A DNA stretch of 23,618 nucleotides from an uncultured archaeon (GCA_964473825.1 CAYYQL010000037.1:1-23618), one strand, 5' to 3'; counted from the first letter of the stretch, positions 2,725 to 22,185 are shown. Program-made: numbers and translations. Notes: a model not told the origin generated them from the sequence alone.

Positions 2725-3195
2725 GTGTGCAAAGCCTTGAAACGAGAGATACGACCTCTAGACCCTTCAGATTTGGAAGATGTGAAGAGAATAGAGAGCT
2801 CGGCATTTCCTGAACCGTGGGACTTCGAGATTTTTGAGATTCTGGCGTCGTACCACGGAAGGGCGATGAAGAGAGGGGGCGAGAAACTATACATGTATGT
2901 GCTGGAAGAGGACGTCGTGACGGGATATGTGGTCTGGGAAGAATCTGCAAACGAAGGACATATTCTGAACTTAGCAGTTCGAGAAGACAAGAGAAACAGT
3001 GGTCGGGGAAAGGGACTCCTTCTCTTCGCCCTCAGAAGACAAGATCTTAGCGGAATGACCTCCTGCATCCTCGAATGTAGAGACAACAATACAATTGCAC
3101 GACGTTTCTATGAGAGCATTGGGATGACCGAGGTAGGTCGTGTCGTAGGATACTACGGAAATCAAGACGCCATCATCTATAGATGGGACTTCTAG
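2725..3195 (+). CDS. rimI: RimI/Ard1-type GNAT N-terminal acetyltransferase
   Basis: IESSAFPEPW, GHILNLAV, KRNSGRGKGLL (acetyl-CoA motif), LECRDNN..ARRFYE, GYY..DAII; the true start may be TTG 2737. Confidence 0.9.
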   Translation: MCKALKREIRPLDPSDLEDVKRIESSAFPEPWDFEIFEILASYHGRAMKRGGEKLYMYVLEEDVVTGYVVWEESANEGHILNLAVREDKRNSGRGKGLLLFALRRQDLSGMTSCILECRDNNTIARRFYESIGMTEVGRVVGYYGNQDAIIYRWDF

Positions 3196-6100
3196 CTGCG
3201 TCTTGATTCGACCAGACGCGGTCCGAGTACATCATGATACAGCGTCAGATAGGCGGGATCGGATGAAACCAACGCAACTGGACGACCACTGTCTGTGGAA
3301 CCACCTAGGAGTAACTCCTTCTGGTCACATAATGCCATATCATACGGGTGGGCGGTCTCCCAGATTCTCCAACCGGCAAGATTCTTGAGAGCAGCGGGTT
3401 GTTCCTCCGACCTGGGAACCACTAGAACTTTTCTTCGCGGAGTATTCACCTTCGAGAGCTTCTTAAGATCCAATCCCTCAACGTCGACCACAGATAAGAG
3501 TACGGATTCCTCTGCGCGCTCAGCCATGTCTACCATGTGAGCATATATCTCGTCTGCACCTGACACATACCAGGTCTTCTTGCTCGGCAGAGCCTGCACA
3601 GACTTGCTTGCTGTGTGGATTGCGTCCAGAACGTCCATAGTATTCGTTGCGAGTTCCTTCATTGTGTTGACGCTCTCCTCGATTTTCTGCTTGAGTTCTT
3701 TGCCGTCCTTTCTTATTGACGAAAGCAAGTTCTTTGCTGACTTGTCAGTGTCACTCTCAAACGAGTTGAGCAGATCATTGCGTTTCTCTGTCAAGGTTGA
3801 AGTCTTAGTAGAAGCGTCGCCATTGGCCTTGGTGACAACCTCCCTCAGCTCCGAGCCTCTTACACCCAGTTCGTTCCGCATCTCCTCAACAAGCTGATAC
3901 GCATCATTGCTCAGCTTAGTCTTAAGTTCAAGAGCGATATTCTCAAACCTTCGAGATGCTGTCAGATTCGAGGACACAACTGTTTCGCGTGTCTTCTCAA
4001 AGAGATCTTCACGGCGCCGATCTATCCTATTTGAGGCGTTCTCGACCAAGGATGTGTAGTCTGTTGTCAAAGACTCAACAGAATCCAAGTACTCCTCTCT
4101 GTCAGAAGTGAGAGACTCGATAATGTCGGACTTTCTCTGCTCTGTCCAAGTACCCGCATCTTCGATGTTTGCTTCAACCGCAGCTGTCAGTTTCTTTTCA
4201 AGGTTGGATACTGACTCTGTTCCTGTTCTCAAGCGAGTCTTCGTGGCTTGCTGGAATTCATTGAGTCTGGCCTTGAATGACGAGCCTGTCTTTTCCAATA
4301 AGGCGTTCACTGACTTCTCGAATTGCTCCACTGTATGCTCGCCTCGATCATTGATACCCTCCGAGACCTCTTCTGATGCTTTGGTTAGATTCTGGCTTGC
4401 AAGCTGGATATCCTCGGTCAGTTTGTTTCCCAAGGCATCCGAGGAGGTAGACACATTGTCCAGTGCATTCTCAACCCATTGCGCGGCTGCATCGAACGCT
4501 TCGTTAGCCTCGTCCCTTCGTTGCTCAATGGCTGCAGATATATCATCGTTCACATCCCTGCGGATATCAATAATCTCCTTTTCACGCGCAACGAGCTGTT
4601 CCTGATATGACTCCATACTTTCGATAGACCTATTGCTGACCTCAGTTGATAATTTGTCAAGCTTCTTGGTTGTATCTGCAAGCAGACGCTGTTTCTCGTC
4701 AGCCTGCTCTGAGGCGTAGTTATCCACAGTTGACCGCATGCTGGCTGAAGTGCGAGCAAAAGAATTCTTGACTGACTCCCGAGTACCTGCGACTCTGTCG
4801 TGGAAGTTTGTCTGGGCACCCGCGACTGATGTTTCGAACTCTCGAGAGGTCTGGACAAGGCTTTCGCCCATTTGTTTTATCGTGCCATGTCGTATCTGAT
4901 CAAGATTGTCCTCTACAGCCTGGAGATTGGACTCGATCATTGAATGGGTACTGGCAAGTTTCTCAGATAGTTGAGCCTGTTTCTCGACACTGAAGTCATT
5001 GAGACTCTTTCGCATCATGCTAACAGAGTCTACAATCTCGTCAATACGGAGAGCAATCTCTGAAGTATACTCCTGCTGCAGCTTGAGGGAGTCTTCTTGA
5101 AGTGCTTCAATCTCTGTCTTGATAGAATTCTTGAATTCGGTATGAGTAGAGCTGATGAGGTCGCGTGATTCCATCGTCTGGCTTGTGATGAGACCATTAA
5201 ACGTTGATTCAAGGCTCTGTGTCAAGGCAATGAACTGACGAGTCATCTCCTCGAGATTGAGATGAAACTCGCCTCGAATCTCCTCGCCCTGACGGTCGAT
5301 GCGTTGAACTTGGTCAGTGATGGTCGAATCAACCTCTTCTTGCACTCTGCCGACCTCAGAAGCCAGGGTTGATACGCTCTGTACTAGCCTGTCATCTAAT
5401 TGGGAGTTAAGTGTCTTGTACAGTTCCTTTGTGTCCTTGATGTTCTTCTGGATCTTCGAACTGATCTCTGTGACAGTCTCTTCGAGCGTCTTGCCGAACC
5501 CGCTCTCCAAATCGTTGACAAAGCGTGATACACCCGACAGGACTGTCTCATTCTTTGTTTTCACCGAACTCTGTATCGTTCCGAATGAGGACTTGAGTCT
5601 GTCACTCATATTGCTCGTCAAGGACTTGAGCTCATCAGTCTGAACAGACAGAGTTTCATTGACATCGTTGATAACACCTTCCAGATCGGAGTAGACATCT
5701 TTTTCGCCTTCTTCCGCCCAAGAATCGAGTTTGGCCTGCAGATTCGCTCTGACCTCCTCGATGCTCGCTTGCTCCGAAGCATTCTGCTCATCGAGTAGTC
5801 TGATCACTTCAGCACGAGCTTCTGTAACATGTGTTCCAAACCTGCTCTGCATACCGGCGACCAAGGTCTTTAGTTCATCATGATTCTCTGAAATCATAGA
5901 CGCAAGGCGTTCGAGATGACTACTCAGTGCATTCTTGATGTCTTCCAAGTAGGCCACGTCGGTGGCCTTAATCTGCTCAAACTGTGCAGCTATCGACTGA
6001 GTCGAGGCGGCCATGTCATCCCCGACTTCATCCTTCCATTTCTCAATCTCATCAACAAGCTCGCCCGTCAAGGTCGCCGTAGTACCTATTTTGTTCCCAG

Positions 6101-7088
6101 CCAAACTGGCATACTCTTGAAAGAGATCCCTGTTCATGTCAACAAGTTCACTCAACGACTTCTGCGAACTGACCTGTTTATTGCCGATCTCCTCTGAAAT
6201 ATTCTCAACAACTTGGACCAGACCTTCATCTACAGAGCCCAGGCTTTCAGTTGTACGGGAAACGGAATCCTCTATGGAGGATTGAATATTTGCAGACATC
6301 TTCTCTAGAACACTCTGCAATGCCACCTGAGAATCATCTATGGCCTTTTCAACCACTTCCTTGGCCTGATCAACCAAGGCTACCGCGCTTGTTCTGAATT
6401 GAGAAGCATTCTCTGATGCACTTGCCTTGTCCTTGTCCAGTGTCTCTGAAAATGAAGAGCCGATTTCTTCGAGAGAGGCATTCATCGACCCCTGAATGGA
6501 ATCTAGCTCATTCTGCAGCGTGGAGAGCTGCTCGCCCAGGTCACTATCCAGAGTGGCACCCATGGTATCCAATACGGACTCTACTCGCTCGGAGAAGCCT
6601 GTCAAGACCTTGTCAGCAACACTGCCAACGATCTCAATCTGGGATTGTACGTTGTCAAGCATCTCGTCTTCATAGACATCGAGTTCCTCCTTCAAATCGG
6701 CAAAAGCGGATTTCCTGCGCTCCATGAAGTCCGTAGAGGTCTCTTTGGCCTGCCCCAGTTGCTTGTCAATCGTATTTTGTACTTGTTCTTGGAGAGAACT
6801 GGTCCTTTCAACAAAAGATGACAGAGCATCCCCGACAGCCAAGTTAGGCGAAATGGCCTGATAGACGGGCACAATCCCCTCAATCTCTGCAACAAGTCCC
6901 TTCTTCACCAATCGACTTAGCGTTCTCTTGACGCTGCCGAGGGTGTCCCCAGTTATCACTGAGAGAGCTCCGGCCGTCATGTTGCCACCAACGTAGACTG
7001 GTAACAGCACTTCAGCCTCTTTCTTCGTTACTCCCAGATTCTTCTCTATCGTCGACATTTGTTTCTCCAATGCTGTATCTCCACTCAT
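3192..7088 (-). CDS. Giant TrmB-like protein: N-terminal winged HTH, ~1,080-aa amphipathic helical rod, C-terminal TrmB effector/PLD-like domain
   Basis: N-term LGVTKKEAEVLLPV..MTAGALS..TLSRLVKKGLV..PVYQAISP is TrmB wHTH-like. C-term TWYVSGADEIYAHMVDMAERAEESVLLSV..MALCDQKELLLG..ALVSSDP is TrmB C-domain-like. The middle is essentially Pro-free and helical. ATG 7088 follows GGAGTG; the ORF track starts at GTG 7100. Confidence 0.8.
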   Translation of the reverse strand: MSGDTALEKQMSTIEKNLGVTKKEAEVLLPVYVGGNMTAGALSVITGDTLGSVKRTLSRLVKKGLVAEIEGIVPVYQAISPNLAVGDALSSFVERTSSLQEQVQNTIDKQLGQAKETSTDFMERRKSAFADLKEELDVYEDEMLDNVQSQIEIVGSVADKVLTGFSERVESVLDTMGATLDSDLGEQLSTLQNELDSIQGSMNASLEEIGSSFSETLDKDKASASENASQFRTSAVALVDQAKEVVEKAIDDSQVALQSVLEKMSANIQSSIEDSVSRTTESLGSVDEGLVQVVENISEEIGNKQVSSQKSLSELVDMNRDLFQEYASLAGNKIGTTATLTGELVDEIEKWKDEVGDDMAASTQSIAAQFEQIKATDVAYLEDIKNALSSHLERLASMISENHDELKTLVAGMQSRFGTHVTEARAEVIRLLDEQNASEQASIEEVRANLQAKLDSWAEEGEKDVYSDLEGVINDVNETLSVQTDELKSLTSNMSDRLKSSFGTIQSSVKTKNETVLSGVSRFVNDLESGFGKTLEETVTEISSKIQKNIKDTKELYKTLNSQLDDRLVQSVSTLASEVGRVQEEVDSTITDQVQRIDRQGEEIRGEFHLNLEEMTRQFIALTQSLESTFNGLITSQTMESRDLISSTHTEFKNSIKTEIEALQEDSLKLQQEYTSEIALRIDEIVDSVSMMRKSLNDFSVEKQAQLSEKLASTHSMIESNLQAVEDNLDQIRHGTIKQMGESLVQTSREFETSVAGAQTNFHDRVAGTRESVKNSFARTSASMRSTVDNYASEQADEKQRLLADTTKKLDKLSTEVSNRSIESMESYQEQLVAREKEIIDIRRDVNDDISAAIEQRRDEANEAFDAAAQWVENALDNVSTSSDALGNKLTEDIQLASQNLTKASEEVSEGINDRGEHTVEQFEKSVNALLEKTGSSFKARLNEFQQATKTRLRTGTESVSNLEKKLTAAVEANIEDAGTWTEQRKSDIIESLTSDREEYLDSVESLTTDYTSLVENASNRIDRRREDLFEKTRETVVSSNLTASRRFENIALELKTKLSNDAYQLVEEMRNELGVRGSELREVVTKANGDASTKTSTLTEKRNDLLNSFESDTDKSAKNLLSSIRKDGKELKQKIEESVNTMKELATNTMDVLDAIHTASKSVQALPSKKTWYVSGADEIYAHMVDMAERAEESVLLSVVDVEGLDLKKLSKVNTPRRKVLVVPRSEEQPAALKNLAGWRIWETAHPYDMALCDQKELLLGGSTDSGRPVALVSSDPAYLTLYHDVLGPRLVESRRS

Positions 7089-7123
7089 ACTGCACTCCAC
7101 TCCATTACTCAGAACGTATTGTT

Positions 7124-7939
7124 CTACCCGCTTGACTTCTCTCCAACTGCTTCAGAGATCTTCACAAAGACTCTAGCAAGAACGCCCGTTTCAATCGATT
7201 TGTCGGGCCCTTCGCTTATCGTTTCGACGATCACATGTGTGCTGTCATCTAAGCGCTGCACAACGAAACTCTCGAAATGCGACTCCAGGATCTCACCAAG
7301 CTCCTTCTCGATGTCGGAGGGATGCACATCTCCCGCATTGATGCCCAACTCCCACCAGTTGATTGTAAGATCAGTACACTCTGCTTCCAAGTCGTAATAT
7401 CGTGCAAATAGGTCCACATACATACGGAATGTGTCATAATCGTCGATAGCATATTCCTCAGGATTGAGAACAACAATTCCACGAGAGAAATCGAAATGGA
7501 ACAACAGGTCATCTCCCATGATAAGGAAGAGGTTATTTGCTCTCACTCGGGCCATTCGACTCCATATCTTGGTGAATCTCGAGGTGAATTGCCTTATCGA
7601 ACTCATCCGTAGCGCAGAAAGCATGTCCTTGATGGGAAGACGTCTGTCACTCATACGACGCCCCTTTCGCTCAAGAATGTACCTTCGCAACTGTCCAAGG
7701 TATTGTGAATAGCAGAATGACGGCAAATCCTGAGTTTCTACGCCGAGTTCGATGAACATGTTCAAGAGGTTTCTGTCCTTGCAGGATGGCCGAACCGTAC
7801 AGCTCAGCCTATCTTCTTGGCAAGCCTTACATTTCTCCTCGTAAAGGGAGATCAGCTCAGCAGCTAGCTCGTTGTCTGCCGACTTACCAAGGAGTCTAAC
7901 GCGTTCAGCTAGTTCGTCTTTATGCTGTTTAAGCTGCAT
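7124..7939 (-). CDS. Hypothetical protein with N-terminal Cys cluster (C-x2-C-x6-C-x5-C plus a later Cys), possible Fe-S or Zn site
   Basis: CKACQEDRLSCTVRPSC..PSFCY; 271-aa ORF co-oriented and closely spaced with the giant gene. Confidence 0.75.
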   Translation of the reverse strand: MQLKQHKDELAERVRLLGKSADNELAAELISLYEEKCKACQEDRLSCTVRPSCKDRNLLNMFIELGVETQDLPSFCYSQYLGQLRRYILERKGRRMSDRRLPIKDMLSALRMSSIRQFTSRFTKIWSRMARVRANNLFLIMGDDLLFHFDFSRGIVVLNPEEYAIDDYDTFRMYVDLFARYYDLEAECTDLTINWWELGINAGDVHPSDIEKELGEILESHFESFVVQRLDDSTHVIVETISEGPDKSIETGVLARVFVKISEAVGEKSSG

Positions 7940-8076: not shown

Positions 8077-9093
8077 CTACTCGTCACTGACCTCTTTCAG
8101 TTTTGTACTCCATGCGCGTATGTCCTTGTTCAATCTTGCAATGTCATTCTCATTCAACGTAGCAGTAGGCGGATATGACTTCAGCTCTCTTGCCACTTTC
8201 CCGACCTGATGTAAGACAGGCGTGTGCATTGAAATTAGCTCTGTTAGTTCATCACGCACCCGTTCAAGAGCAGCACCCATATCTCTGGCCTCAGTCTTCG
8301 AATCTACTTTCTTCAGAAGGGTCCCCATGAGTTCATCAACTGTTGATTCTGAGACCACCTTGCTCGGCTCTACGGGCTCCTTGGTGCTCTTCTTCTTTGC
8401 CTTAGACTTTTTTCCAGACTCTAGCGGTGATGACTCTGTAGAGTCGGCAAGTTGTTGAACAGAGGAGATCACTTCATCAATCTTGTCAAGAGACTTGTTG
8501 TACTTCCTCTCGAGATCATCAAGCTGACGGACGAGAATTCCAACGATCTCTTTCGTATCTGCTTGCGCACTGGCCAAATCCTTCACTCTCTCTTCCAGAG
8601 TGGAGAGGCTGGCCACATATTGCTGCAGATCATCGATCTTCTTCCCCAACACTTCCGAGTCTTTGCTCTCGCTGATCTCCTCAATACTTGATTGCATCTC
8701 TTTTAGAAACTCGCTCATGCCCTCAATCTTTGCCTCAACATCGACGAGTTGTTTCTGGGTCTGATCCTCTGCCATCTTGGTGAGGACACTCTGGAGCGAT
8801 GATGTCACTTCATTAACTTTTTCATCCAGCTTTTCAATCTCCTTAGAGTTGTCCAGAGATGGAAGACTCCTGTCGAACTCCTTCATATTGTCCAGAAGTT
8901 CATCCATTTTCGAGAGAGCTGCTACTTCCTTCTGTATCGCCTTGACCTCATCTGTCAGGGAATCAACAGTCTTGCTCATATCAGCGATGTCCGATAGTGG
9001 TTTGAGTTCTTTGGATATCTTGTCTACTTCTTCAGACAGCTTGTCGACTTTTTTCTCGAGATTGTCCATTTGCTTTGACTGGTCTGTCGACAT
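8077..9093 (-). CDS. Coiled-coil protein with Lys-rich linker and C-terminal four-helix domain (Vps28-CTD-like by eye)
   Basis: Heptad-rich first ~215 aa, KKSKAKKKSTKEP linker, then an ~85-aa helical domain ending LKSYPPTATLNENDIARLNKDIRAW; GAGG SD upstream. Confidence 0.75.
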   Translation of the reverse strand: MSTDQSKQMDNLEKKVDKLSEEVDKISKELKPLSDIADMSKTVDSLTDEVKAIQKEVAALSKMDELLDNMKEFDRSLPSLDNSKEIEKLDEKVNEVTSSLQSVLTKMAEDQTQKQLVDVEAKIEGMSEFLKEMQSSIEEISESKDSEVLGKKIDDLQQYVASLSTLEERVKDLASAQADTKEIVGILVRQLDDLERKYNKSLDKIDEVISSVQQLADSTESSPLESGKKSKAKKKSTKEPVEPSKVVSESTVDELMGTLLKKVDSKTEARDMGAALERVRDELTELISMHTPVLHQVGKVARELKSYPPTATLNENDIARLNKDIRAWSTKLKEVSDE

Positions 9094-9206
9094 CGTTTCC
9101 CCTCATTTCTGTGGAGCCAGTCTGAGAATGAACAAGAGTCAGTATTTAGCCTTTCGGGAGTTGTTATGCGAAATGGAAAGACAATTGATATTGCAGGAAG
9201 TGAGTG

Positions 9207-10055
9207 TCACCCCTCCCGGATGACTTCAATACCCAACTGTTCTAGCATCGGCACGAATGTATCACGTTGCTTCGCATTCGTTCCCTTCCAGTCAACTACG
9301 GCGGCAGTCACCTTCTCTGCGGACCGATGAATCATCTGATTCACGACCTCCTCTGTTATACCGTCCAGAGCGTACTTAGGAGCCATGTGGCCAATCCTGT
9401 ACTCCTCTGAGAGAACTAGTTTATTGAACTTGCTAGCGTAGTGAGTACCCCCGAATCCTATCACGCTCTCCGCCCCAATGGGAGCATTCGCACACTTCAT
9501 CACAGCCTCTGCAACGATACTTGCCCCAATTTCATGCGTCCAGTAGTGTTCATCACTACCCAGCTCCACAAAGAGCATTGGCGTGTCAAGTGCGGTAGGC
9601 CCGTGATGAGTTACCTCAAGTGACACATCGAAATCTGAGAGATTGCGATCGTTTCTCTCGTGGTAAAGAGTCCGGAGTGCCACTGAAACCAAAGATGCAA
9701 CTGAAACCGATAGCGAATAGGAACTGCCTCCAAATGCAGCCTCAGCTCCAAGATTACCGGTGCTGTGAACGAGCAGAGATGGTTTGCCAGATTCAGACCG
9801 ATGACGAGAGCAGAAGATGAAGACCTCTGCTTCCAGGTCTCCCTCAAGATGGTCGGAGTAGATGAGATCGCGGTTCGACGTGACAAGCTGAACTGAGTCA
9901 TTGTGAGCCATGACAGGATGGCCGTCGAATTCACTCTCTGTCTCAGTGAAACCATGTTCCTCTATGAGAGCCTGTCTTATTGTCTGGCTGGCAAGGTCAT
10001 GCTCAGACGTCACGAGTATCCTCAGAACCAACACCTTCAGGTAAGTTAACGACAC
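9207..10055 (-). CDS. dtdA: D-aminoacyl-tRNA deacylase (DTD2/GEK1 family)
   Basis: FCSRHRS, LVHSTGN, EVTHHGPT, FVELGS, IGFGGTHYA, GHMAPKY; the real start is probably GTG/TTG at ~10034/10031. Confidence 0.95.
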   Translation of the reverse strand: MSLTYLKVLVLRILVTSEHDLASQTIRQALIEEHGFTETESEFDGHPVMAHNDSVQLVTSNRDLIYSDHLEGDLEAEVFIFCSRHRSESGKPSLLVHSTGNLGAEAAFGGSSYSLSVSVASLVSVALRTLYHERNDRNLSDFDVSLEVTHHGPTALDTPMLFVELGSDEHYWTHEIGASIVAEAVMKCANAPIGAESVIGFGGTHYASKFNKLVLSEEYRIGHMAPKYALDGITEEVVNQMIHRSAEKVTAAVVDWKGTNAKQRDTFVPMLEQLGIEVIREG

Positions 10056-11280
10056 ATTCCTTGAGGAGAGGCTGCAAAGTCACACCCAAATCAATCGTGA
10101 CTTTCTTGCCCAGATTCTTGGCTATCTCAGCCTCAATGCGCTTCTTGAAGTCCTCAGCCTTTTCCAGCTGTTTCTTGATGTCATCTCGAATTCGAAGCAG
10201 GTCGTTGTTGTGATATTGAACATTCTTCTCTGCCTCTCGGACCATTCCCTCAAGCTCCTCGGTCCTACGGTATATCTCAGACCCGGCATACTCCTTCCTC
10301 TTGCGGTCTATCTCCTTGGCCTTATCCTGATACTCCTGCAGCTCGCCTTTCTTGATGATCTCTATCTCCTCGATGGCCCTTCTTGCCAATCGATCCTTCA
10401 ATGGGAACGCATCACGCTCGATGGCGGTTTCCATCGCCTCCAAACCCTCCAGCAATCCCGGACAGCCGTTGGGTTCCTCGACGATAGCCTCGAACGGATC
10501 CTCGAAATAGTCTGTCAGGGCCTTCTGGCCGGATGGGCTCACTCGGACGCCAGTATCGTGCTGCAGAAATTTCTTGATAGGCTTCTTGAGTGTGTTCAGC
10601 TTCATCCTTAGAACACTGCCAATATGCTCCGACTCTTCATCAAGATTGAGAACCTCAGAAACATTTGACTCATTCTTGAACTCCTCCAGTTCTTTCTTTG
10701 CGGCCAGATAGTCCTCTTCGGCCTGCCTGATCTTCATTTTCGTCTGACGTATGTCTTCTTGGATGATGTCCTTGCTGAAGGTAAGTTCGCGCAGCGTCTG
10801 GATACGTTCAGCGGTGCGTTCCAGATCTTGCACCCAGTTGTATTCATACAGGAGCTTCCCAATGATCTTCAGTTCCTTGCTCAGCTCCTTCATGTAATCG
10901 TCCAGCTGCTTTATGGTGCCCTTGTGTTTCTTGTCCATACGCTTGATCCAGCGAGCACCAGCCCCCCAGAGTTCTTGGATGAAGTGTTGAATCTCCTCCA
11001 TCATCTGCTCAGTACTCTCATATGATATCTCTTGGCTGACGTCAAAATCCTCAACTACATTGTCAATCTTCAGGGCAAAACGTACCGCTATGCCCACTGA
11101 CTCTTGATCTTCATCTTCGGCACTTGCTTCTCTCAGTTCTGTTGCAACAGCCTGAACGTCCTTAAGGGCCCGGTCAACATTGCGGTAACTCCTTTCAGCC
11201 TTCTTCCTGAAGTCCTGCGACTTCTTCTCCAGTTCTATATTGTACCATAATTCCAGCTGCGCAAGAGTCAGTTCTGTCAT
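10003..11280 (-). CDS. Archaeal all-helical/coiled-coil protein with a central globular insert; no ATPase motifs
   Basis: E/K-rich helices flank LKKPIKKFL..YFEDPFEAIVEEPNG; no Walker A or B. Confidence 0.75.
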   Translation of the reverse strand: MTELTLAQLELWYNIELEKKSQDFRKKAERSYRNVDRALKDVQAVATELREASAEDEDQESVGIAVRFALKIDNVVEDFDVSQEISYESTEQMMEEIQHFIQELWGAGARWIKRMDKKHKGTIKQLDDYMKELSKELKIIGKLLYEYNWVQDLERTAERIQTLRELTFSKDIIQEDIRQTKMKIRQAEEDYLAAKKELEEFKNESNVSEVLNLDEESEHIGSVLRMKLNTLKKPIKKFLQHDTGVRVSPSGQKALTDYFEDPFEAIVEEPNGCPGLLEGLEAMETAIERDAFPLKDRLARRAIEEIEIIKKGELQEYQDKAKEIDRKRKEYAGSEIYRRTEELEGMVREAEKNVQYHNNDLLRIRDDIKKQLEKAEDFKKRIEAEIAKNLGKKVTIDLGVTLQPLLKECVVNLPEGVGSEDTRDV

Positions 11281-20133: not shown

Positions 20134-21219
20134 CTAGGGCTCAATACCGTGAAGTGGAAAGACCAGCCTCTTCAATAGAGAGACATTCGTCCGTACTATG
20201 TCCCAGGTCTCCTCGTCATCGTGTTCGAAGGGAGGGGTCTGTATTGGGGGAACATAGTCATTGCCAGTCAGTACTGCCAAAATTACACATGCGCCCCACG
20301 CGAGAGAGTCAGGATCATATCCGCCACCAGAGAGTACGCCCAGCCGTCCGTCAGAGTATCGATGGGCAAAGTAGTGAATCTGCTCAGCGACATACCTGAT
20401 TGTGTCCATAGTGAGATTCATGTGCGTCAGAGGGTCCCGATAGTGGGCGTCAAACCCTGGAAGGAATAGTATGAAATCGGGCCGGAATGAATCAACGAGA
20501 GGCGGCACGAGTTCGTCAAAGGCAAACCTGTAGACTTCGTCACCTGAATCCATCGGGAACCACATGTTGACATTGTGGCCTGCGCCCGCGCCCACACCAA
20601 TATCCTCGATATGTCCATCGTGGGGGTACATCCACTCGGGGTCTTCATGAAACGAGATCTGCATGACATTGGGTGAATCGTAGTAGTAGGTCTGTGTACC
20701 GTTTCCATGATGTGCATCGAAGTCTGCGATGAATATCCTCTGGAATCCGTTTGAAGTGAGTTCGTGGACAGCAGCTGCAATATCATTGAAGACACAGAAA
20801 CCGCCACCAGCGTCATATGTCGCGTGATGGAATCCTCCGGTTGGTGAGAAGAAGTGGTCGATAGAGCCGGACAGGATAGCCCTGACTCCCCAGACGGTGG
20901 CACCAGATACACTGAGTGCGTTCTTATAGACACCTCTGAACCCGGGGGTATCGACGGCTATGTCCTCCACTCCTGACGCCGATATCTCTTTCACACGGGC
21001 GATATACTCAAGGGAGTGAACAGCCTCTAGAGTGTCCTGTGGCAGTGTATCAGTTTCGATGAATTCAACACGTGAGGGGTCAAGACATCCCTCCTCCTCT
21101 GCACTCTCCTTGATGTAGGTGAAGCGATTCTTACTGATGGGGTGGCGTCGCCCATAATCGTGTTTGTCAAACATAGGAGACCAAAGAAAGCCGGTCCTAC
21201 AGCTGCCTCTACCTTTCAT
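20134..21219 (-). CDS. Histone deacetylase family (AcuC/class I-like) Zn-dependent deacetylase
   Basis: HP..RF, GGFHHA, GFCVFND, DFDAHHGNGTQ, SFHE, GFDAHYRDPL, GGGY; start placed at ATG 21219, ~23 nt downstream of TATAAG (21247-21242), consistent with a leaderless mRNA. Confidence 0.93.
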   Translation of the reverse strand: MKGRGSCRTGFLWSPMFDKHDYGRRHPISKNRFTYIKESAEEEGCLDPSRVEFIETDTLPQDTLEAVHSLEYIARVKEISASGVEDIAVDTPGFRGVYKNALSVSGATVWGVRAILSGSIDHFFSPTGGFHHATYDAGGGFCVFNDIAAAVHELTSNGFQRIFIADFDAHHGNGTQTYYYDSPNVMQISFHEDPEWMYPHDGHIEDIGVGAGAGHNVNMWFPMDSGDEVYRFAFDELVPPLVDSFRPDFILFLPGFDAHYRDPLTHMNLTMDTIRYVAEQIHYFAHRYSDGRLGVLSGGGYDPDSLAWGACVILAVLTGNDYVPPIQTPPFEHDDEETWDIVRTNVSLLKRLVFPLHGIEP

Positions 21220-21381
21220 CGCGGGGTATTCCATGAGCCGTCTTATATCGGTTGACTTGTAGTCGACCAGGCGAGTGAGGAACCTCAGAGGACGTGTCGG
21301 ACCATATGACCTTTGACAATCCTTTTCTCTCTCTGCGGTAGAAGTACACCATGCTGGTTGCAGTATACGAGAGGATGCCAC

Positions 21382-22185
21382 ATGGATGAACGGACAGCAC
21401 AGGAAAAGTTTGATGCAGTACGGGACATGCTCCGAGGGAAGAGAGTTGTCGTTGCATTCAGCGGAGGGGTCGACAGTACGGTACTGGCACACATTGCACG
21501 ACAGGCTGCAGCTGAAACCCTTCTCCTCACGGTTGATATGCAGACAGTCCCCCAGTTTGAGATTGAACAGGCCGTTGAGGTGGTCCAACGTCTTGGAATA
21601 GAACATAGGGTCATCAGATTTGACTGGACAGCAGACACATCTCTGTCAGCCAATCCACCAGACAGGTGCTATCACTGCAAGAGAAGTCTCGCTCGACTCT
21701 GGTTGGAAGTCAGAGATGAGCGAGGGATGGATATGGTGGTGGAGGGAACCAATGCGAGTGACCTCAAGGGACACCGACCGGGCCTGCAAGCACTGGAAGA
21801 GATGGGAGTGTCTTCACCATTTCTCGAAGTAGGAATTGGAAAAGGGGATATCCGAGCTTACGCACGTGAACATGACCTCGGCATAGCAGAGAAACCACCT
21901 CAAGCATGCCTGGCCACCAGGTTTCCACCTACCGTCGAGATAACAGAGGAGCGCCTCGCGATGATTGAGGCAGTGGAGAACACGATACGAGAGCTGTACG
22001 AACTAGACTGTGTTCGTGCACGCTACCACGGAGAACTTGTAAGAATCGAGGTGCCTCCAGAATACATCTCTAAGTTCGGATCTGACTCAGAGCTGGATCA
22101 GCTAGTTCAAGCGGCCAAAGAGACAGGTTTCAAGTATGTGACATTGGACCTAGAGGGCTATCGTTCGGGGTCAACCAGCGTCTAG
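21382..22185 (+). CDS. larE: LarE-family ATP-dependent sulfur transferase (PP-loop)
   Basis: VAFSGGVDS, DRCYHCK, EGTNASD..HRPG, ACLATRFP, RARYHG..RIEV, GFKYVTLDLEGYRSGS; ATG 21382 follows GAGG. Confidence 0.93.
   Translation: MDERTAQEKFDAVRDMLRGKRVVVAFSGGVDSTVLAHIARQAAAETLLLTVDMQTVPQFEIEQAVEVVQRLGIEHRVIRFDWTADTSLSANPPDRCYHCKRSLARLWLEVRDERGMDMVVEGTNASDLKGHRPGLQALEEMGVSSPFLEVGIGKGDIRAYAREHDLGIAEKPPQACLATRFPPTVEITEERLAMIEAVENTIRELYELDCVRARYHGELVRIEVPPEYISKFGSDSELDQLVQAAKETGFKYVTLDLEGYRSGSTSV

Follow-up and report, generated by a model that had tools for sequence, protein, structure and literature searches.

Introduction

Proteins of the TrmB family are 264–340 aa long (PMC4158304). In TrmB of Pyrococcus furiosus and Thermococcus litoralis (PDB 3qph, 2f5t) a winged helix-turn-helix domain (wHTH) is followed by an amphipathic helix of about 25 residues, which runs antiparallel to its partner about a dyad so that i+j is constant, and by an effector domain that binds sugar and has a second subdomain; the compact dimer binds palindromic operators. 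TrmBL2 (TK0471/PF0496), a nucleoid protein of the Thermococcales with 264 aa, has the N-terminal TrmB wHTH joined by one helix of a few turns to a PLD-like C-domain, and the ∼70 aa carrying the sugar-binding domain are missing from its C-terminus (PMC4158304). On DNA it assembles into stiff filaments, and at domain boundaries it brings Smc-ScpAB to a stall (PMC11840125; PMC4158304). The chromatin proteins Sso10a1 and Sso10a2 of Sulfolobus (1rj7, 4wh0), of about 10 kDa and outside the TrmB family, have an antiparallel coiled-coil rod, a few nm long, with wHTHs at its opposite ends, carry no C-terminal domain, and bend and bridge DNA or make filaments (PMC4941522).

Long paired helices are also found in other systems. 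The peripheral stalk (E-G) of A/V-type rotary ATPases is a rigid strut made of a two-stranded, right-handed hendecad coiled coil, a parallel heterodimer of about 100 residues that has no DNA-binding head (PMC3293630, PMC6131620). The arms of SMC, Rad50 and MukB are long antiparallel coiled coils, dominated by heptads and matched in length, that link a DNA-touching ABC ATPase head to a conserved apex with a hinge or zinc hook. The cytoplasmic hairpins of chemoreceptors (2ch7, 3g67, 1qu7) form heptad-based four-helix bundles of about 20–30 nm. In methyl-accepting chemoreceptors the tip is the most conserved part, and lengths fall into discrete classes with symmetric indels. Apolipoproteins A-I, A-IV and E (PF01442) are secreted proteins of Pro-punctuated 22-mers with an 11/22 amphipathic period, and their helices pair antiparallel in solved forms.

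The protein described here is a relative of TrmBL2 in which the pairing helix has been lengthened from short to about 1,080 residues. It has the domain order of TrmBL2 and likewise no sugar-binding subdomain, but differs from it in the length of the helix and in carrying K/R for Y50/D51, and with 1,298 aa it is far outside the size range of the family.

Results

The Gene Is Intact and Has Full-Length Orthologues

In the window, a stretch of 23,618 nucleotides from an uncultured archaeon, positions 3192–7088 on the minus strand form one open reading frame, with an ATG start at 7088 and a GTG in the same frame at 7100. The lineage is Asgard (Thorarchaeota). The translated protein consists of three parts: a TrmB-type winged helix, a proline-free hendecad helix and a C-domain. 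The features of the gene are as follows.

3192..7088 (-): whole rod gene by ORF call and translation, 1,298 aa plus stop (stop codon 3192–3194)
6825..7046 (-): TrmB-type winged helix-turn-helix, aa 15–88 (PF01978, NCBIfam TrmB, PDB 3qph)
5241..6824 (-): N-arm of the rod with hendecad repeat, aa 89–616, 528 residues with net charge -55, helix length about 78 nm
5232..5240 (-): break of the helix predicted by AlphaFold2 at aa 617–619, where arm pairing has its symmetry centre (i+j about 1240)
5133..5279 (-): conserved rod centre, aa 604–652 (conservation profile and alignment)
3594..5231 (-): C-arm of the rod with the periodicity and phase of the N-arm, aa 620–1165, 546 residues with net charge -31, helix length about 81 nm
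3195..3593 (-): C-terminal alpha/beta domain, aa 1166–1298, TrmBL2-like PLD fold without HKD motif

The protein matches one protein on record at 100% and has 15 full-length relatives there, and more than 40 full-length orthologues were found overall. We found no paper on this rod family in the literature. The preliminary description of the locus had named an assembly chimera as a possible flaw. This is rejected, as contigs from another sample and year tile the entire gene without indel or joint and full-length homologues exist.

Both Ends Are Related to the TrmB Family

As the preliminary description had proposed for the first ∼90 aa, the N-terminus is a TrmB-type wHTH. Pfam TrmB (PF01978) matches aa 17–81 with 26.7 bits (gathering score 25.6) and is present in 16 of 16 relatives; the NCBIfam TrmB model matches with E 1.7e-6. 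The window's own N-domain aligns with P. furiosus TrmB (3qph) without gaps, aa 15–88 to 11–84, at E 4.2e-5 (E 1.6e-5 by profile). The DNA-contacting Tyr50 and Asp51 of the TrmB recognition helix are not kept in this alignment, where K54 and R55 take their places; the family consensus at this position is V-x-R.

The C-domain was recognised by its fold. An AlphaFold model of aa 1140–1298 (pLDDT 84.5) gave TrmBL2 chains (5bpd/5bpi/5bqt/5box) as the top PDB matches in Foldseek, with E 1.6e-8 and TM 0.56–0.63, followed by PLD-fold proteins and by TrmB (2f5t, 3qph). PF11495 matches the C-domains of 18 of 29 orthologues (best E 3.4e-5). It does not match the window's own C-domain sequence at E≤1, and for this protein the sequence similarity of the C-domain to TrmBL2 is below detection. 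The HKD motif (H.K....D) is absent from the protein. The domain, 133 aa long, ends after the PLD-like subdomain, and the second effector subdomain of TrmB with its sugar-binding residues is absent. Judged by the predicted fold, the C-domain is thus PLD-like, of the TrmB type and most like TrmBL2, in agreement with the initial assignment of the last ∼125 aa.

The Rod Has a Sharp Hendecad Period

Proline is absent between P81 and P1168, a stretch of 1,086 residues, and the helix between the two domains comprises ∼1,077 residues. The hydropathy Fourier spectrum of aa 91–1170 has a single sharp peak at 3.66 residues (11/3) with a normalised power of 89.8, against a maximum of 12.7 in 200 shuffles, and the power at 3.5 is about nil. 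The hendecad phase is almost unchanging from aa ∼100 to ∼1122. Genome-wide, among 1,551 open reading frames of at least 250 aa, the rod gene and one paralogue are the only outliers in 11/3 power (69 and 74; the next 13.9). These results uphold the earlier claims of an essentially Pro-free middle and of an 11/22 spacing of hydrophobics with a period of 3.67 and not 3.5. The sequence strings cited in support were also found in the protein, with F751/F762 11 residues apart and F923/F945 22 apart. Folding of the middle as compact bundles had been named as an outcome that would overturn the initial reading; the middle is not built that way.

At 3 to 4 of 11 positions, the hydrophobic stripe is as narrow as that of two-stranded coiled coils. 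The net charge of the rod is -86 and the head is about neutral. The only Cys of the protein is C1254. A Walker A pattern is absent, and neither Pfam nor NCBIfam assigns the protein to an ATPase family, so that it is indeed not an SMC. Its apex has neither a hinge domain nor a CxxC zinc hook, the centre being helical and without Cys. A hydrophobic N-terminal segment, signal or membrane segment was not found either, the maximum 19-aa hydropathy (1.53) lying inside the wHTH.

The Length of the Rod Is Fixed

No indels were found in the rods of 43 orthologues with 21–90% rod identity. From aa 4 to 1166 the alignment is free of indels in 29 further species, and likewise in the 15 database relatives, so that rod length is unchanged to one residue despite divergence to about 30% identity. 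Three distant families (f2, f7 and f19) have an equal net rod length. The natural length variants are confined to the rod centre: in the G155 orthologue 232 aa are duplicated in tandem with the centre at ∼620–631, and deletions of 22, 29 and 114 aa occur in the paralogue family, all of them near the midpoint of that family's rod. Outside the centre none was seen in more than 60 sequences from two families.

The Two Arms Pair Antiparallel

Covariation between rod positions was measured as MI-APC in the 43 orthologues (effective number 22). A band at i+j=1237–1243 stands out with a windowed z of 11.6, compared with maxima of 4.46 in 100 column permutations, 4.56 on all other antidiagonals and 5.45 at parallel offsets. 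It is seen in all separation bins, out to 900–1100 residues, and its symmetry centre is 618.5–621.5. When arm labels were permuted, z at 1240 was 3.7±1.2 (maximum 6.4) vs 11.0 observed. Conservation is mirrored about the same centre, with conserved patches at 184–199/1041–1056, 351–380/857–890, 480–513/729–758 and 564–577/663–671; the ten top sums all fall within 1232–1243.

The centre itself (aa 604–652) has the rod's strongest conservation (I604, E607-F608-H609, T616-x-Q618-F619, E627, F630-N631-G632, Q637, E640 and F652) and its highest glycine density (G603, G625, G632). AlphaFold2 run on aa 500–740 with a 30-sequence alignment predicted helices at 501–616 and 620–739 (pLDDT 81.8, only about 60 at the predicted turn), and the best fold matches of this model are long antiparallel hairpins, namely chemoreceptor and Smc arm fragments. 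There is no Gly or Pro at residues 617–619, and the hydrophobic 4-3-4 pattern is unbroken across aa 608–634.

From the covariation, the mirrored conservation, the AlphaFold break and the centre-only indels we conclude that the rod halves pair antiparallel along their whole length, residue i with ∼1240-i. The paired arms make a nearly straight rod of two helices that is strongly acidic and has a residue-exact length. Pairing at i+j≈1240 also reproduces, within or between chains alike, the TrmB-family trait of a joining helix that lies antiparallel about a dyad.

A Five-Cysteine Protein Is Encoded Directly Upstream

Two co-oriented genes lie upstream of the rod gene.

7124..7939 (-): five-cysteine partner gene, 271 aa, directly upstream of the rod gene
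8077..9093 (-): co-oriented gene for a 338-aa coiled-coil protein, synteny within the Thor order only

The partner protein has an invariant C-x2-C-x6-C-x3-P-x-C motif plus a fifth Cys. A spacer of 35 nt with GGAG-like sites separates the end of its gene from the rod ATG, and the gene adjoins the rod gene in 28 of 28 Thor loci. It is also adjacent to rod genes in families f2, f3, f7, f8, f15 and f21, and in seven Asgard families overall. By its gene adjacency, the five-cysteine protein is a candidate partner of the rod protein. The linkage of the 338-aa coiled-coil gene to the rod gene is weak.

Discussion

Pairing at i+j≈1240 leaves therefore either an ∼80 nm fold-back or an ∼160 nm antiparallel rod of two chains. 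The initial estimate of a rod of up to ∼160 nm does not hold for a free single or parallel helix, since residue i pairs with ∼1240-i; that length stands only if the protein is an antiparallel dimer. The explanation that best accounts for the data jointly, and in which we place moderate confidence, is a TrmBL2-type protein with an expanded hendecad helix that forms an ∼80 nm fold-back hairpin and serves as a DNA-anchored strut. The short helix for dimerisation, which joins winged helix and PLD-like C-domain, would have grown to about 1,077 hendecad residues, and a single chain would fold back at the conserved, glycine-flanked centre (aa ∼617–619). The wHTH and C-domain together would make a TrmBL2-like head at one end, with the conserved tip at the other. 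With the head on DNA, the acidic rod may project outward as a strut or spacer of fixed length, and the tip may be a site of docking or self-association, perhaps for the putatively co-transcribed five-cysteine protein. The distance between chromatin and another structure or DNA segment would then be fixed. In particular, the coincidence of peak glycine density and peak conservation at the rod centre favours the fold-back.

A less probable but serious contender is a domain-swapped antiparallel homodimer of continuous ∼1,077-residue helices with a dyad at residue ∼620, in effect a giant TrmB dimer or Sso10a. Each end of this ∼160 nm strut would carry a composite head, the wHTH of one chain and the C-domain of the other, and the strut could bridge two DNAs at a fixed distance or polymerise head-to-head. 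The coiled-coil helix of TrmB pairs in this way between subunits (F81/I91', F84/L88', L88/F84', I91/F81'), an arrangement termed a domain swap of the DNA-binding domains (PMC4158304), and the rod starts exactly where the TrmB dimer helix aligns. Sso10a, with its wHTHs placed at opposite ends as they would be here, is a solved precedent that bridges DNA (PMC4941522). The hendecad core and phase run through the centre, which lacks Gly and Pro at 617–619, and covariation, mirrored conservation and the centre-only indels and duplication fit equally well. The AlphaFold hairpin is weak evidence, because a monomer run satisfies such couplings only by folding back. However, glycine density and conservation at the centre are more in keeping with a turn or tip than with plain coiled coil, and AlphaFold places a helix break at this point. 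Each head would have a single wHTH, and for a periodic helix of 1,000 residues zipping up within one chain should be kinetically far easier than for two chains to find their exact register. Monomer modelling and covariation thus fit both arrangements alike, and we slightly favour the fold-back. We consider a parallel in-register homodimer (or a free helix on its own) of ∼160 nm, in which the two wHTHs and the two C-domains would lie at opposite ends, very unlikely. Parallel pairing is common among long rods of hendecads or heptads, and it would make the wHTH a dimer at one end, but the parallel-offset control has no signal comparable to the antidiagonal at 1240, conservation is mirrored about the centre, and 11-residue indels would be tolerated anywhere, whereas the two families have none off-centre. 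The Pfam Apolipoprotein family PF01442 matches the rod in 9 stretches with 111.5 bits (cut-off 90), the rod profile matches ApoA-IV, ApoA-I and ApoE chains, and the period of the rod is 11/3. This would suit an amphipathic 11-mer coat on lipid or membrane surfaces, of the apolipoprotein, perilipin or LEA-like kind and anchored by the TrmB domains. We regard such a coat as highly improbable given the lack of Pro punctuation, the narrow hydrophobic stripe, the co-varying arms, a residue-exact length unexpected of a coat, the DNA-binding-type end domains and the absence of a signal or membrane segment. The PF01442 match is best explained by common periodicity and composition, and the resemblance most likely reflects these and not descent. 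The end domains do come from a regulator family, but an ordinary sequence-specific TrmB-type regulator, with the insert as passive linker or compact helical bundles, is the most improbable reading of all: a period that stays in phase for ∼1,000 residues leaves no room for loops of arbitrary length, the insert length is kept to the residue, and the Y50/D51 recognition residues and the sugar-binding subdomain are both gone.

In the preferred fold-back reading the protein resembles SMC, Rad50 and MukB in its putative DNA-touching head, long antiparallel coiled coil, length-matched arms and conserved apex, but it has none of their ATPase, hinge or zinc hook parts, and its arms are uninterrupted and hendecad-based. 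It shares the long antiparallel helical hairpin with chemoreceptors; the MCP signal domain was not found in it by Pfam, and it is not membrane-bound. The peripheral stalk is alike in its two-stranded hendecad coiled coil.

The preliminary description had not included the strict conservation of length, the conserved stretch at the centre, the paralogue or the conserved gene of the five-cysteine partner, and the antiparallel pairing of the rod halves around residue ∼620 is new here. The rod protein may function as a DNA-anchored strut, spacer or tether, with putative DNA binding by its head, and may, as first suggested, bridge DNA or form filaments. A more specific proposal, which we offer as doubtful, is that these proteins are DNA-anchored rulers, in which a TrmBL2-like head on chromatin and a fixed acidic strut (about 80 nm, or 160 nm if swapped) space or link the nucleoid via the tip and the five-cysteine partner; at the far end there could be the membrane, the cytoskeleton or a further DNA segment. 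Should the PLD-like heads pair as well, the swapped form could assemble into a DNA-binding filament that repeats every 160 nm. If true, the ruler would give Asgard archaea, of all lineages the closest to eukaryotes, a chromosome scaffold of their own that works without an ATPase.

The Rod Protein Is TrmBL2-Like at Both Ends

The rod gene is a single open reading frame, and GGAG-like sites are found 10–15 nt 5′ of its ATG.

Window 3192–7088, (−) strand: rod gene, 1,298 codons, ATG at 7088

The preliminary description had proposed a TrmB-type winged helix-turn-helix (wHTH) at the N-terminus and a TrmB/PLD-like domain at the C-terminus, and both assignments hold. Pfam detects the TrmB wHTH (PF01978) at aa 17–81 with 26.7 bits (cut-off 25.6), and an NCBIfam TrmB model matches aa 11–174. 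The N-domain alone aligns gap-free with Pyrococcus furiosus TrmB (3qph), aa 15–88 on 11–84, with an E-value of 4.2e-5; in this alignment the DNA-contact residues Y50/D51 of TrmB correspond to K54/R55 of the rod protein. For the C-domain, searches of PDB sequences with the single sequence and with a profile gave no match, and fold search alone was informative. An AlphaFold2 model of aa 1140–1298, built from a 29-sequence alignment (pLDDT 84.5, pTM 0.73), shows a single helix leading into an alpha/beta domain. When this model was compared with the PDB using Foldseek, the top matches were seven TrmBL2 chains (5bpd, 5bpi, 5bqt, 5box; E 1.6e-8 to 3.8e-7), followed by the PLD-fold proteins PLD3, NucT, Zucchini and Nuc and then by TrmB (2f5t, 3qph). 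The Pfam model Regulator_TrmB (PF11495) matches the C-domains of 18 of the 29 orthologues; the window's own C-domain is unmatched.

The rod protein contains neither an HKD motif, nor a Walker A motif, nor a membrane segment. Because of the end-domain matches and the missing HKD and Walker A motifs, we define the protein as TrmBL2-like at both ends and neither an SMC nor an active PLD enzyme. An SMC-like identity, already denied in the preliminary description, is rejected as there is no ATPase, and an active PLD nuclease is rejected as the HKD motif is absent. The rod has a net charge of −86 and both end domains are approximately neutral. There is one cysteine in the whole protein.

The Rod Has a Hendecad Period

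The region between the end domains, described earlier as essentially Pro-free, contains no proline after P81 and before P1168. Its hydropathy spectrum (aa 91–1170) shows one sharp line at 3.66 residues with a power of 89.8, where shuffled sequences reach at most 12.7, and no signal at a period of 3.5 residues. This is far beyond chance and bears out the proposed hendecad-type helix. The line is sharper in the family-mean hydropathy, with a power of 94 at 3.667 vs 3.0–5.9 at 3.60–3.70. In 66-residue windows the 11/3 phase hardly changes over aa ~100 to ~1122, apart from a single drift by roughly one residue at about aa 300–400. Three to four positions per eleven are hydrophobic, in 4-3-4 spacing, and Pfam reads nine stretches of the protein as apolipoprotein A1/A4/E repeats (111.5 bits, cut-off 90).

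Among the 1,551 ORFs of at least 250 aa in the 3.27 Mb assembly, only the rod gene and one paralogue are outliers in 11/3 power (69 and 74; the next value is 13.9). The paralogue lies on another contig of the same genome.

Contig C8:27461–30901 (locus L003:5462–8905), (+) strand: paralogue gene, 1,147 aa, TTG start

It repeats the architecture of the rod protein: an N-tail of acidic character precedes a wHTH whose end reads YQAVPP, and then come ~874 residues of hendecad rod (11/3 power 74) and a C-domain of TrmB-like type. Its identity to the window's protein is 19–23%. It is found in 25 of 60 genomes of the Thorarchaeal family.

Rod Length Is Conserved to the Residue

Sixteen database relatives, mostly labeled Thorarchaeota, are 1,296–1,308 aa long and 26–90% identical to the rod protein. 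In a search of 201 Asgard genomes, full-length matches were found in 41 of the 43 genomes of the same family. Alignment with 29 orthologues (31–36% identity) shows no insertion or deletion at all between aa 4 and 1166, and the same holds for the database relatives. The rods of three other Asgard families (f2, f7, f19; 13–18% identity) have the same net length as the window's rod; at this distance MAFFT adds compensating gaps and motif-based rod boundaries are unreliable, so that only net length is comparable. Conservation of length to the residue would imply a ruler-like or register-locked function.

The preliminary description had raised the possibility of an assembly chimera. We reject it, since the whole gene is tiled, with neither indel nor joint, by contigs that stem from another sample and another year, and full-length orthologues exist. 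One orthologue, at L079 (G152:C3:838695–842559), is split at about aa 356 into ORFs of 394 and 973 codons, which a frameshift, a stop or an error in sequencing could explain.

The family extends well beyond the Thorarchaeal lineage. A single query with the rod protein gave matches in 149 of the 201 sampled Asgard genomes, and hendecad rods were verified in ten Asgard families, with 11/3 power of 25–101 in the rods sampled. Of 1.84 billion cluster representatives, a profile search with the C-domain retrieved only 145. All of those of at least 527 aa have their strongest hydropathy period at 3.63–3.69, with two exceptions, of 568 and 583 aa, that lack a clear period. The representatives fall into length classes of ~620, 712–763, 803–853, 929–936, 999–1007, 1087–1123, 1229–1245, 1288–1316 (the largest, with 26 representatives), 1392–1408, 1537 and 1732–1794 aa. 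Cultured Asgard strains carry shorter members of ~750 aa.

The Two Arms of the Rod Very Probably Pair Antiparallel

Covariation, taken as mutual information (MI) with APC correction, was computed from 43 non-redundant orthologues, with an effective number of 22, and added up along antidiagonals. A peak is seen at i+j = 1237–1243, pairing the N-arm (aa 89–616) with the C-arm (aa 620–1165), with a windowed z of 11.6. The controls reach at most 4.46 (100 column permutations), 4.56 (all other antidiagonals) and 5.45 (parallel offsets). The excess is present in each separation bin, including that of 900–1100 residues; thus, the pairing extends from the centre to the heads. In a stricter control, in which the partners of N-arm and C-arm were permuted, z at 1240 remained at 3.7 ± 1.2 (maximum 6.4) vs 11.0 observed. 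The signal is therefore in part mirrored variability and in larger part true covariation. The top individual MI pairs are noisy, with 6 of 60 on the band vs 1.4 expected, and the register is resolved no better than i+j = 1231–1247. Coupling between the N-domain and the C-domain is weak, with a block ~3 sd above controls. A predicted complex of the N-part (aa 1–200) with the C-part (aa 1040–1298) scored 0.23 vs a mark of 0.32, which speaks neither for nor against their contact.

Conserved patches are mirrored about the same centre (184–199/1041–1056, 351–380/857–890, 480–513/729–758 and 564–577/663–671), and the ten best mirrored-conservation sums all fall within 1232–1243. Near-invariant glycines of the family are found at aa 185 and 1052 (nt 6534–6536 and 3933–3935), which sum to 1237, the strongest antidiagonal; at 1052 the protein of this window carries Ala instead. 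The glycine pair suggests a paired discontinuity, possibly a joint ~100 residues from the head.

Natural length variants point to the same centre. An orthologue in genome G155 (genus g10; L078:1930–6651, G155:C115) lies in a 1,574-aa open frame, of which ~1,530 aa align to the family. The extra length is due to a 232-aa tandem duplication in its rod with copies 66% identical; the unit corresponds to query positions ~504/516–736/747, centred at ~620–631, and the central motif is thus present twice. The 24 sequences of the paralogue family likewise have an indel-free rod, three variants excepted; these have deletions of 22, 7+22 and 114 residues, none more than ~20 residues away from the predicted midpoint (loci L064, L061, L065, L066 and L069). 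The 114-residue form marks genus g14. Antiparallel pairing predicts just such a restriction of indels to the symmetry centre, whereas in a parallel dimer they would be accepted anywhere along the rod. We hold antiparallel pairing of the arms, as such, to be very probable.

Hairpin or Swapped Dimer

Antiparallel arms can be realized within one chain, as a fold-back hairpin of ~80 nm with one head, or between two chains, as a swapped dimer of ~160 nm with a composite head at either end. Covariation, mirrored conservation and centre-only indels fit both equally. AlphaFold2 on aa 500–740 also speaks for antiparallel arms, with predicted helices at 501–616 and 620–739 and a break at 617–619 (pLDDT 81.8, ~60 at the break), although a monomer run can satisfy the couplings by fold-back only. 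The best fold matches of this model, chemoreceptor cytoplasmic domains and arm fragments of Smc/Smc5-6, are long hairpins with antiparallel helices; their E-values are weak, with probabilities of up to 0.97–0.99. Conservation along the rod is highest at aa 604–652 (I604, E607, F608, H609, T616, Q618, F619, E627, F630, N631, G632, Q637, E640, F652), and so is glycine density, with G603 in 63%, G625 in 72% and G632 in 95% of the sequences. The hydrophobic 4-3-4 pattern runs unbroken through the centre, and residues 617–619 include no Gly or Pro. Three things lead us to favor the hairpin slightly, at about even confidence: the centre is rich in Gly and highly conserved, AlphaFold breaks the helix there, and zippering within one chain would, as we infer, be kinetically easier.

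For the swapped dimer speaks the homologous helix of P. furiosus TrmB, which follows the wHTH and pairs F81/I91′, F84/L88′, L88/F84′ and I91/F81′, antiparallel and between subunits, in what has been described as a domain swap (PMC4158304). The rod begins exactly where this pairing helix aligns. We regard the swapped dimer as a serious but less probable arrangement. Since the TrmB dimer helix aligns at the rod start, the simplest origin of the rod would be growth of a TrmB-type helix through duplications centred on its dyad, as exemplified by the G155 duplication, which shows such growth happening.

A Five-Cysteine Gene Accompanies the Rod Gene

The rod gene is flanked by the following genes.

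Window 2725–3195, (+) strand: GNAT acetyltransferase gene, converging on the rod gene with a 4-nt overlap with its stop codon
Window 7124–7939, (−) strand: five-cysteine gene, 271 aa, 35 nt 5′ of the rod gene on the same strand
Window 8077–11280, (−) strand: co-oriented genes further upstream, encoding a coiled-coil protein of 338 aa, DtdA (archaeal D-aminoacyl-tRNA deacylase; dtdA) and a helical protein of 425 aa

All of these neighbors are syntenic in 28 of 28 Thorarchaeal loci. The 338-aa protein has DUF948-like matches below the cut-off. A histone-deacetylase-family gene (window 20134–21606, (−) strand) lies 13 kb from the rod gene.

Synteny of the 338-aa, dtdA and 425-aa genes with the rod gene is confined to the Thorarchaeal order, and outside it only the five-cysteine gene keeps its adjacency, next to rod genes of 824–1,300 aa in families f2, f3, f7, f8, f15 and f21. 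It is not adjacent to rod genes in the f9, f12 and f19 genomes checked and is absent beside the C8 paralogue. The five-cysteine family occurs in 142 of the 201 Asgard genomes, in single copy in nearly all, and within the Thorarchaeal lineage its identity is 43–62% vs 31–36% for the rod. Invariant in its protein are the motif C-x2-C-x6-C-x3-P-x-C...R, one further Cys and an N-P; the five invariant cysteines are C37, C40, C47, C53 and C76. No family or structure match was found in Pfam or among PDB sequences, and the best ESM Atlas match (PsiA, 0.79) is below the useful range.

Discussion

What the preliminary description had observed was confirmed. Its interpretation, a DNA-binding head on a rod of up to ~160 nm if fully extended, is supported in part only: a bridge stays within the functional frame given here, and the full length belongs to the less probable swapped dimer. 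The antiparallel pairing of the rod halves is new in this analysis. TrmBL2 forms stiff DNA filaments and stalls Smc-ScpAB at chromosome-domain boundaries (PMC11840125), and Sso10a shows that DNA can be bridged by wHTH domains mounted on an antiparallel coiled coil (PMC4941522). Given these precedents, the most plausible function of the rod protein would be that of a DNA-anchored, fixed-length strut, spacer or bridge.

Full-text literature searches found no paper on a TrmB-headed hendecad rod protein. Taken together, the rod protein represents an architectural variant that is new to the TrmB/TrmBL2 family, marked by an antiparallel hendecad rod, a length kept exact to the residue and a partner gene that is likewise conserved. 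We know of no longer uninterrupted hendecad coiled coil than the rod of this TrmB-headed family.

No known lineage is more closely related to eukaryotes than the Asgard archaea, in which the organization of chromosome and cell interior has, to our knowledge, hardly been described. Here, a family widespread among them joins a chromatin-protein head to a very long hendecad coiled coil, whose length is kept to the residue across lineages less than 20% identical (as net length at such distance). In this family nature supplies a clean model of how centre-symmetric duplication can lengthen a short antiparallel dimer helix.
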